Sequence record: OZ370879.1
Source: a phage
Length of the DNA: 40,787 nucleotides
Strand: one strand, 5' to 3'
In this document: one piece after another, positions 15,704 through 40,787 of the stretch
Numbering within the stretch: position 1 is the stretch's first letter
Layout of the letters: each line of letters begins with the position of its first letter
The notes under the pieces: generated by a model
Told to the model about the DNA's origin: nothing
Seen by the model: the letters and a program-made list of their open reading frames with translations, nothing else
Databases searched by the model: none
Position numbers and translations under genes: made by a program

Positions 15704-15748
15704 CAAAAAACCCCTCAAGACCCGTTTAGAGGCCCCAAGGGGTTATGC
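15704..15748 (-). terminator. T7 late terminator Tphi
   Basis: Sense strand reads tagcataaccccttggggcctctaaacgggtcttgaggggttttttg: a GC-rich hairpin followed by a U-run, identical to the terminator carried by pET vectors. Confidence 0.9.
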
Positions 15749-15828
15749 TAGTTATTGCTCAGCGGTGGCAGCAGCCAACTCAGCTTCCTTTCGGGCTTTG
15801 TTAGCAGCCGGATCTCCTAAGGCTCGAG

Positions 15829-16591
<763 letters not shown>

Positions 16592-16616
16592 CGGGATCGA
16601 GATCTCGATCCTCTAC

Positions 16617-16745
16617 GCCGGACGCATCGTGGCCGGCATCACCGGCGCCACAGGTGCGGTTGCTGGCGCCTATATCGCCGACATCACCGATGGGGAAGAT
16701 CGGGCTCGCCACTTCGGGCTCATGAGCGCTTGTTTCGGCGTGGGT
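16617..16745 (+). pseudogene. tetA: Fragment of pBR322 tetracycline-resistance gene tetA (about 43 internal codons), plasmid backbone remnant
   Basis: Plus strand translates to [46 protein letters not shown]; preceded by agatctcgatcc, the BglII site and destroyed BamHI junction typical of pET vectors. Confidence 0.85.
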
Positions 16746-16806
16746 ACAGAGGCCTAAGAGTGCTTTGTACTGTATGGCTCCGGTTTGGAATGTTTGCCAC
16801 GTGTTT
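16746..16806. other. 61-bp linker of unassigned origin between the gene 10A stop and the vector fragment
   Basis: Matches neither the recalled T7 sequence after gene 10A nor pBR322; contains StuI aggcct and PmlI cacgtg. Confidence 0.5.
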
Positions 16807-17844
16807 TTACTCCACTTTGAAAACCACTGCACCAGCAGCTTCTGGGCGAAGACCACCGTGGCCCATTGCGTACTTAGCGATAATCTGGTCCGCTTGGAAG
16901 TTAGCACGGCGAGCGCGCTCCAGAGCCAAGTCACGCAGCTTAACAGTACCTACCGCAGAGCGGTGCATGAACAGGCCGATAACGTTGTCCTTAGCAACCT
17001 TGACATTACCCTCACCTTTATTGGCAGGGAAGACGTGCTTCTGACCAGTAGTGCCCTCACGAGCGGTACCAGCACCACCAGCGGTGAGGTGCGGAACTTC
17101 TACAACCTCAAAGCCCATAACGTTGCGGATAGAACCCTTCTCAGGGTCAATCAGAGCAGCGTAGTTTGCTGCGTTCGGCATCAGTGCTGCCAGAATCGCA
17201 GAGTAGCTATCTGGGTCACAGTAGAACACACGGTCAGCAGCCGGAACATAGTTCTTGGTCAGAGCCGCACGAGCCTTAGTCAGAGCCGCAATAATCTCCT
17301 TACCCAGCGCAACTTGGTCGGTAAGTGCGGCCTTGTTCTGAGTGGTCTCAATTACGGTAGCAGTACCTAAGCCCTCGATGTTCTCATTATATTTGCTTTC
17401 CACGTTACACAGACCGGCAATCTCAGCCAGAACCGCACCATCCGCAGCCATCGCCAGAGATTCACCCAACTGAGAGGTATACTCAGAGCGAACGTCGTAG
17501 TGGTTCATCGCGTCCTCAATATCATAAATCAGAACGTCAGCCGTCAGGAGACCGTCAATGGTGATTACCTTCTCGGTGTGTTTGATGTCCTTACGTTTAT
17601 CGTCGAGGTTCTCGCCCGGAGCCAGATACGCTGCCTGAGTGCGACCCAGAACAGGGAACTGAGCGGATTTACCGCTGGAGATGGAACGTACCATGTGGCG
17701 AGAAGTGGTCACGGAGGTACGAGCGAACGCAGTCAGGACTTCACCGCCAAATACCTTCAAGAACAACGCCAGTTTATCTCCAGCAGCAACTACACCTTTA
17801 CCTTGGTTAGTACCCATTTGCTGTCCACCAGTCATGCTAGCCAT
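16807..17844 (-). CDS. 10A: Major capsid protein (gp10A, 345 aa)
   Basis: ORF MASMTGGQQMGTNQGKGVVAAGDKLALFLKVF...AVVFKVE, start inside NdeI catatg; matches T7 gp10A. Confidence 0.95.
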   Translation of the reverse strand: MASMTGGQQMGTNQGKGVVAAGDKLALFLKVFGGEVLTAFARTSVTTSRHMVRSISSGKSAQFPVLGRTQAAYLAPGENLDDKRKDIKHTEKVITIDGLLTADVLIYDIEDAMNHYDVRSEYTSQLGESLAMAADGAVLAEIAGLCNVESKYNENIEGLGTATVIETTQNKAALTDQVALGKEIIAALTKARAALTKNYVPAADRVFYCDPDSYSAILAALMPNAANYAALIDPEKGSIRNVMGFEVVEVPHLTAGGAGTAREGTTGQKHVFPANKGEGNVKVAKDNVIGLFMHRSAVGTVKLRDLALERARRANFQADQIIAKYAMGHGGLRPEAAGAVVFKVE

Positions 17845-17847
17845 ATG

Positions 17848-17930
17848 TATATCTCCTTCTTAAAGTTAAACAAAATTATTTCTAGAGGGAAACCGTTGTG
17901 GTCTCCCTATAGTGAGTCGTATTAATTTCG
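17848..17930 (-). promoter_or_regulatory. Native T7 class III promoter phi10 with gene 10 leader and RBS (promoter core 17902..17924)
   Basis: Exact consensus promoter followed by the s10 leader; 83 bp identical to 16509..16591. Confidence 0.9.
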
Positions 17931-40651: not shown

Positions 40652-40787
40652 AGGGACACAGAGAGACACTCAAGGTAACACCCAAAGACAAACCCAAGGG
40701 TCATCCCCAACCCTTAGGGAACCCTCAAGGTCAACCGAAGGTTGACTTTAGGTGATTGGCTGGGCTTTAGGTACCCCCTATGGGGGA
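40652..40787. repeat. T7 terminal repeat, partial left-end copy
   Basis: 40676..40787 is identical to 1..112; starts agggacacagagagacactcaagg, the reverse complement of the inner end of the recalled T7 terminal redundancy. Confidence 0.9.

Follow-up and report, generated by a model that had tools for sequence, protein, structure and literature searches.

The 60 bp after gene 10A in an engineered T7 reporter phage match a published PHEIGES assembly overhang

In the PHEIGES method of cell-free T7 engineering, DNA fragments are joined by exonuclease III digestion and annealing, with no restriction step, and the product goes straight into cell-free extract for expression (Levrier et al., Nat Commun 2024, PMC10933291). 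Its first design relied on natural T7 overlaps, and some unedited wild-type phage were obtained; in the redesign, sense and antisense orthogonal sequences were placed on the fragment ends to stop crosstalk, after which the cassette was found in all phages and none lacked the insert; the authors term the method 'leak-free' (PMC10933291). The orthogonal oligonucleotide library concerned is reference 45 of that paper (Subramanian, Russ and Ranganathan 2018; PMC10933291), and its primers are the product of 10 million random 20-mers that were filtered for primer quality and mutual dissimilarity, then tested experimentally (PMC7445780). Supplementary Data 2 of the PHEIGES paper lists the primers oho1-mcherry-s (AAACACGTGGCAAACATTCCAAACCGGAGCCATACAGTACAAAGCACTCTTAGGCCTCTGtacccacgccgaaacaagc) and gp10-oho1-as (CAGAGGCCTAAGAGTGCTTTGTACTGTATGGCTCCGGTTTGGAATGTTTGCCACGTGTTTttactccactttgaaaaccactgcaccagc), as well as gp1-oho1-as and gp17-oho1-as with an identical 60-nt tail (PMC10933291).

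The DNA analysed here (sequence record OZ370879.1; 40,787 nucleotides, the whole of which we call the window) represents an engineered T7 genome that is nearly complete and reads in reverse complement. It aligns with positions 25-24004 and about 24102-39913 of wild-type T7 (NC_001604) at >99.96% identity, and between these two parts lies a single foreign insertion of roughly 1 kb. The genome ends are each 24 bp shorter than those of wild-type T7, leaving 136 bp of the 160-bp terminal repeat (1-136 and 40652-40787); this trimming and the reverse-complement orientation are consistent with long-read assembly rather than biological change. The features referred to below are collected in Table 1.

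Table 1. Features of the junction, the reporter cassette and the T7 backbone, in window coordinates.
Feature	Position	Strand	Evidence or remark
oho1, synthetic orthogonal overhang 1	16747-16806	-	exact match to 5' tails of PHEIGES primers oho1-mcherry-s, gp10-oho1-as, gp1-oho1-as and gp17-oho1-as
oho1 unit 1	16787-16806	-	AAACACGTGGCAAACATTCC
oho1 unit 2	16767-16786	-	AAACCGGAGCCATACAGTAC; equals primer GSP2 (named in an independent paper)
oho1 unit 3	16747-16766	-	AAAGCACTCTTAGGCCTCTG
gp10-oho1-as footprint	16747-16836	+	reverse-complemented oho1 followed by the last 30 nt of gene 10A with its stop codon
oho1-mcherry-s footprint	16728-16806	-	oho1 plus 19-nt vector-annealing part tacccacgccgaaacaagc; primer list and sequence reading
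T7 gene 10A, major capsid protein, 345 aa	16807-17844	-	ORF; 100% identity to T7 10A
Vector backbone fragment, pBR322 tet(C)-derived (as in pET/pIVEX-type vectors)	16592-16746	-	100% identity to tet(C)-bearing plasmid records from 16746
Cassette T7 promoter and 5' UTR/RBS	16508-16591	-	promoter TAATACGACTCACTATAG at 16568-16585; blastn self-hit, vs WT 22881-22964
GFP reporter ORF, 225 aa, MELFTGVV...VTAAGI	15829-16506	-	Pfam PF01353 GFP, E=7e-10
105-bp block, cassette pET-type 10B-tail/Tphi equal to native T7 WT 24106-24210	15704-15808	-	longest-common-substring analysis
Point differences vs NC_001604, gene 17	3668 and 3662		gp17 S541R and silent change at codon 543
Point difference vs NC_001604, gene 12	12722		gp12 E784G
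Point differences vs NC_001604, gene 16	7638 and 6595		gp16 R561K and G909S
Point difference vs NC_001604, gene 9	18182		gp9 N227S; common to PP384393
Point difference vs NC_001604, gene 0.7	38347		silent
1-bp insertion vs NC_001604	38916		at WT 1896; common to PP384393

The limits of the junction are set by its neighbours. Identity with wild-type T7 runs as far as window 16807, in the stop codon of gene 10A, the alignment breaking at wild-type position 24004 and resuming at about 24102-24106; on the minus strand the gene ends ...AVVFKVE-TAA, its stop (16807-16809) directly abutting the foreign sequence. On the other side, comparison with plasmid records showed that identity with tet(C)/pBR322-type plasmids starts exactly at 16746. 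This base already belongs to the vector-annealing part of a published primer, and the stretch between the stop codon and the vector sequence is therefore 60 bp long, not 61. The original prediction, made from the sequence alone, had described 16746-16806 as neither native T7 nor pBR322. The two comparisons bear this out, and the stretch is real, though one base too long at 16746; the string quoted for it also took in the 'taa' of the 10A stop codon, outside the prediction's own range.

The 60-mer is identical to the tail shared by the four PHEIGES primers. All 90 bases of gp10-oho1-as match the plus strand of the window (90/90, with 0 expected by chance), and the flanks of the 60-mer are the annealing parts of both published primers: ttactccactttgaaaaccactgcaccagc at the end of gene 10A and tacccacgccgaaacaagc in the vector, the latter being listed also as the vector sequencing primer pIVEX2.3d-seq1-s (PHEIGES supplements, PMC10933291). 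The 60-mer sits where a PCR fragment of the T7 genome meets that of the reporter cassette. Judged from these matches, it is almost certainly oho1, the orthogonal overhang 1 of PHEIGES cell-free T7 engineering. The stretch had been taken for a designed synthetic sequence of unknown provenance: the exact match to published primer tails upholds the first half of this description and does away with the second, the provenance of oho1 being already published. Neither this synthetic overhang nor the family of engineered T7 reporter phages to which the genome belongs is new.

Searches for the 60-mer elsewhere gave a consistent picture. Of 50,697 phage records searched, only three contained it, all of them engineered T7 genomes belonging to a single submission (PP384393, PP384395 and PP384397). 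Alignment did not find it in wild-type T7 (NC_001604), in which the sequence after the 10A stop encodes the 10B tail; the 73-bp junction gave only a 22-nt chance match (E=6) against 72,556 plasmid records; and exact scans found neither the 60-mer in IMG/VR viral contigs nor its first 40 nt in 185,579 species genomes (one genome per species). Within the window there are no near-copies of its 20-mers at up to 4 mismatches. We attribute the lack of a natural match to the origin of the library primers as random 20-mers filtered for quality and dissimilarity. In the literature, full-text search with the three 20-mers found only the middle unit, as the universal priming site GSP2, the first and third being in no searchable paper text; their reverse complements and the 20-mers of the second overhang, oho2, gave no match. 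A natural origin, whether as a variant of a T7 strain or through recombination with host or plasmid DNA, has nothing in its favour beyond the location of the 60-mer in a phage genome, and is at odds with its absence from wild-type T7, the natural phage records searched, plasmids, viral contigs and, for the first 40 nt, species genomes. The exact match to a synthetic primer tail refutes it, and leaves this reading with practically no chance of being right.

In each of the three engineered genomes oho1 is the left edge of the mCherry cassette: after gene 10A in PP384393 (T7_mCg10o), after gene 17 in PP384395 (T7_mCg17o) and after gene 1 in PP384397 (T7_mCg1o). Since it moves with the cassette to three loci, the 60-mer is part of how the cassette was designed rather than a junction peculiar to one locus. 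This distribution bears on a suggestion of the original prediction, that the stretch is a DNA barcode or watermark identifying a strain. The 60-mer is indeed synthetic, was not designed to code, has no match in natural databases, and in practice would identify PHEIGES-derived phages; but it is identical in at least four constructs, at three loci and with two reporters, and the authors state that its purpose is to provide an annealing overlap (PMC10933291). The barcode reading is unsupported and highly improbable. As oho1, on the other hand, the sequence (with oho2 where this is retained) is a reliable signature of PHEIGES-built phages as a group, by which they can be screened out of searches for natural novelty.

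Two restriction sites had also been noted, PmlI (CACGTG) and StuI (AGGCCT), and both are present inside the 60-mer, 48 bp apart. They are what speaks for a restriction linker or mini-polylinker designed into the position after gene 10A for later cloning. However, neither enzyme is a unique cutter, the genome having second sites at 1856 (PmlI) and 21792 (StuI); with only two sites, the 60-mer lacks the cluster of unique sites used for cloning that makes a polylinker; and two 6-mers in 60 random bases are unremarkable. The 60-mer consists of three concatenated 20-mers, the middle one GSP2 and the others probably from the same library, whose primers began as random 20-mers, and the published workflow proceeds by exonuclease III annealing with no restriction step. 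Given this origin, the non-unique sites and the workflow, the two sites are best read as incidental, and the chance that they mark a cloning linker is very slight. A further suggestion, that of a primer landing pad, came close: the 60-mer is three PCR-primer sequences in tandem, probably all from the validated library, but its documented role is that of an assembly overlap.

The 60-mer was also considered as a regulatory element, and rejected as such: its RNA fold is no better than that of shuffled sequences (z=0.30), and scanning it for sites resembling sigma-70 promoters or terminators gave none. We ascribe this lack of excess structure and of promoter or terminator signals to its probable derivation from a library of random 20-mers. 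In the finished phage oho1 is a passive assembly scar without designed biological role.

The making of the junction can be pictured from the primers. The T7 genome would have been PCR-amplified in pieces, the piece ending at the gene 10A stop with gp10-oho1-as, and the reporter cassette (vector fragment, T7 promoter, RBS, reporter and Tphi) with oho1-mcherry-s; both primers would thereby contribute the 60-nt tail, composed of three 20-mers that presumably all come from a library of non-cross-reacting primers, designed by computer and validated by experiment. Removal of the 3' ends by exonuclease III would expose complementary 60-nt single strands, which would anneal, and cell-free expression would then yield phage. 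Unique synthetic homology of this kind would let the PCR fragments join only in the intended order and, since nothing in T7 resembles this artificial overlap, the fragments could not join without the insert, hence 'leak-free'. The purpose of the overhang is that given in the PHEIGES paper. What the comparisons establish directly is the sequence identity, the position and the co-occurrence with the cassette at three loci; its use in the present genome we infer.

The vector fragment that follows oho1 lies upstream of the cassette promoter and contains a BglII site (16600-16605); the promoter is annotated in PP384393 as 'T7 promoter added for mCherry cassette'. The cassette promoter, leader and RBS (16508-16591) form a perfect 84-bp direct repeat with the native phi10 promoter and leader (17847-17930), and the two copies flank the essential gene 10A. 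The repeat is a potential substrate for recombination, the deletion product of which would lack the capsid gene. As to the reporter, the ORF looks like the truncated eGFP known as 'deGFP'. It has termini (MELFTGVV and VTAAGI) that we take to be those of deGFP. The PHEIGES supplements include a plasmid named T7p14-deGFP (PMC10933291). Since the annealing target of oho1-mcherry-s is the vector backbone rather than the reporter, one set of primers should amplify a GFP or an mCherry cassette, and the GFP genome would appear to have been built with the same PHEIGES primers on a deGFP template.

At its right end the cassette departs from the design. The second overhang, oho2 (AAAGGGGCCGTCAATATCAG AAATAAGACGACGACCCTCG AACGATGATGCTCACTCTCG), whose units together with those of oho1 run in alphabetical order, as if they were entries 1-6 of a sorted list, should stand after the cassette terminator. 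The window contains 0 matches to oho2 with up to 3 mismatches allowed, and is therefore not the literal designed product; oho2 is absent from PP384393 too, and the gene-1 and gene-17 constructs still have it. Its absence has no bearing on the identity of oho1. The right-hand insertion junction falls somewhere inside the 105-bp block of Table 1, which includes the Tphi hairpin (15709-15744, by terminator scan and sequence reading). By design, two copies of this block would form a direct repeat with 97 bp between them (oho2 and 37 bp of native sequence); the window keeps one copy, and wild-type 24005-24105 has also been lost. We ascribe the loss of oho2 to this repeat, either because fragments annealed directly through the 105-bp homology during assembly or because the repeat collapsed by recombination during growth. 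For phage engineers, the consequence is that a cassette with its own Tphi placed beside the native Tphi does not keep the designed right junction.

The position of the scar also affects the gene 10 frameshift product. The -1 slip site (G GTT TTC) is intact, upstream of both the 10A stop and the insertion, and the -1 frame (16756-16826, minus strand) enters oho1 and ends at a TAG in its third 20-mer. The predicted product, ...GFQSGV-KTRGKHSKPEPYSTKHS*, carries 17 artificial, lysine-rich residues after FQSGV, in place of the 52-residue specific tail that follows the shared FQSGV in native 10B. Because the -1 frame now reads into oho1, this phage is unable to make native gp10B. According to a review, the terminator holds a CCCC motif, some 200 nt downstream, that plays a part in the gene 10 frameshift; here this motif lies about 1.1 kb downstream, which may bear on how much of the artificial product is made. 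From the reading frame we would tentatively suggest, while giving it rather less than an even chance, that the scar is translated and that a capsid variant with a synthetic tail makes up a fraction of the subunits. If so, reporter phages of this type would unintentionally display a synthetic peptide on some of their capsid subunits. In any event, insertion directly after the 10A stop swaps the 10B frameshift tail for scar-encoded residues, a point of interest to those designing such phages.

The remaining differences from NC_001604 are the few point changes and the 1-bp insertion of Table 1. One of them, gp17 S541R, is a tail-fibre mutation linked in the PHEIGES paper to infection of deep-rough LPS hosts (PMC10933291). 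For the gene 12 variant the direction is discrepant: that paper has 'G784E' (PMC10933291), whereas the reference has E and the window G. By its matching features, gp17 S541R and a GFP cassette, the window fits T7-GFP-S* (Nat Commun 2025), with which we would tentatively equate it. With oho1 assigned, the annotation is complete, in that every base of the window can now be accounted for.

The closest known construct is PP384393.1 (T7_mCg10o), to which this genome is about 99.99% identical outside the reporter ORF. The two share the 60 bp right after the 10A stop with the same primer-annealing flanks on both sides, the downstream vector fragment, T7 promoter and UTR, and the right junction through Tphi without oho2. 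They differ in the reporter, mCherry with a His-tag/polylinker tail in PP384393 and the 225-aa deGFP-like GFP in the window; in the backbone, that of the window carrying gp17 S541R, gp12 E784G, and gp16 R561K and G909S; in orientation and ends, the window being the reverse complement with 24 bp missing at each end; and in one base of the cassette 5' UTR (window 16542, tctagA vs tctagC). The last restores an XbaI site, tctagAaataatt as against tctagCaataatt in PP384393, and presumably reflects different template plasmids.

Two further systems are comparable in their parts or their principle. With the orthogonal GSP ('gene-specific primer') set of Subramanian et al. (Synth Biol 2018, PMC7445780) oho1 shares its middle unit, GSP2, and its three units have the 20-nt length and the GC content (45-50% in each) expected of that library; the library, however, was made for PCR de-multiplexing of oligonucleotide pools, whereas in oho1 its members are concatenated into a 60-bp homology arm. 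Overlaps of the Gibson/SLIC type work in the same way, in that an exonuclease makes identical ends single-stranded and their annealing sets the order of the fragments, but these are usually native or scarless, while PHEIGES deliberately leaves an artificial sequence in the product to ensure orthogonality.
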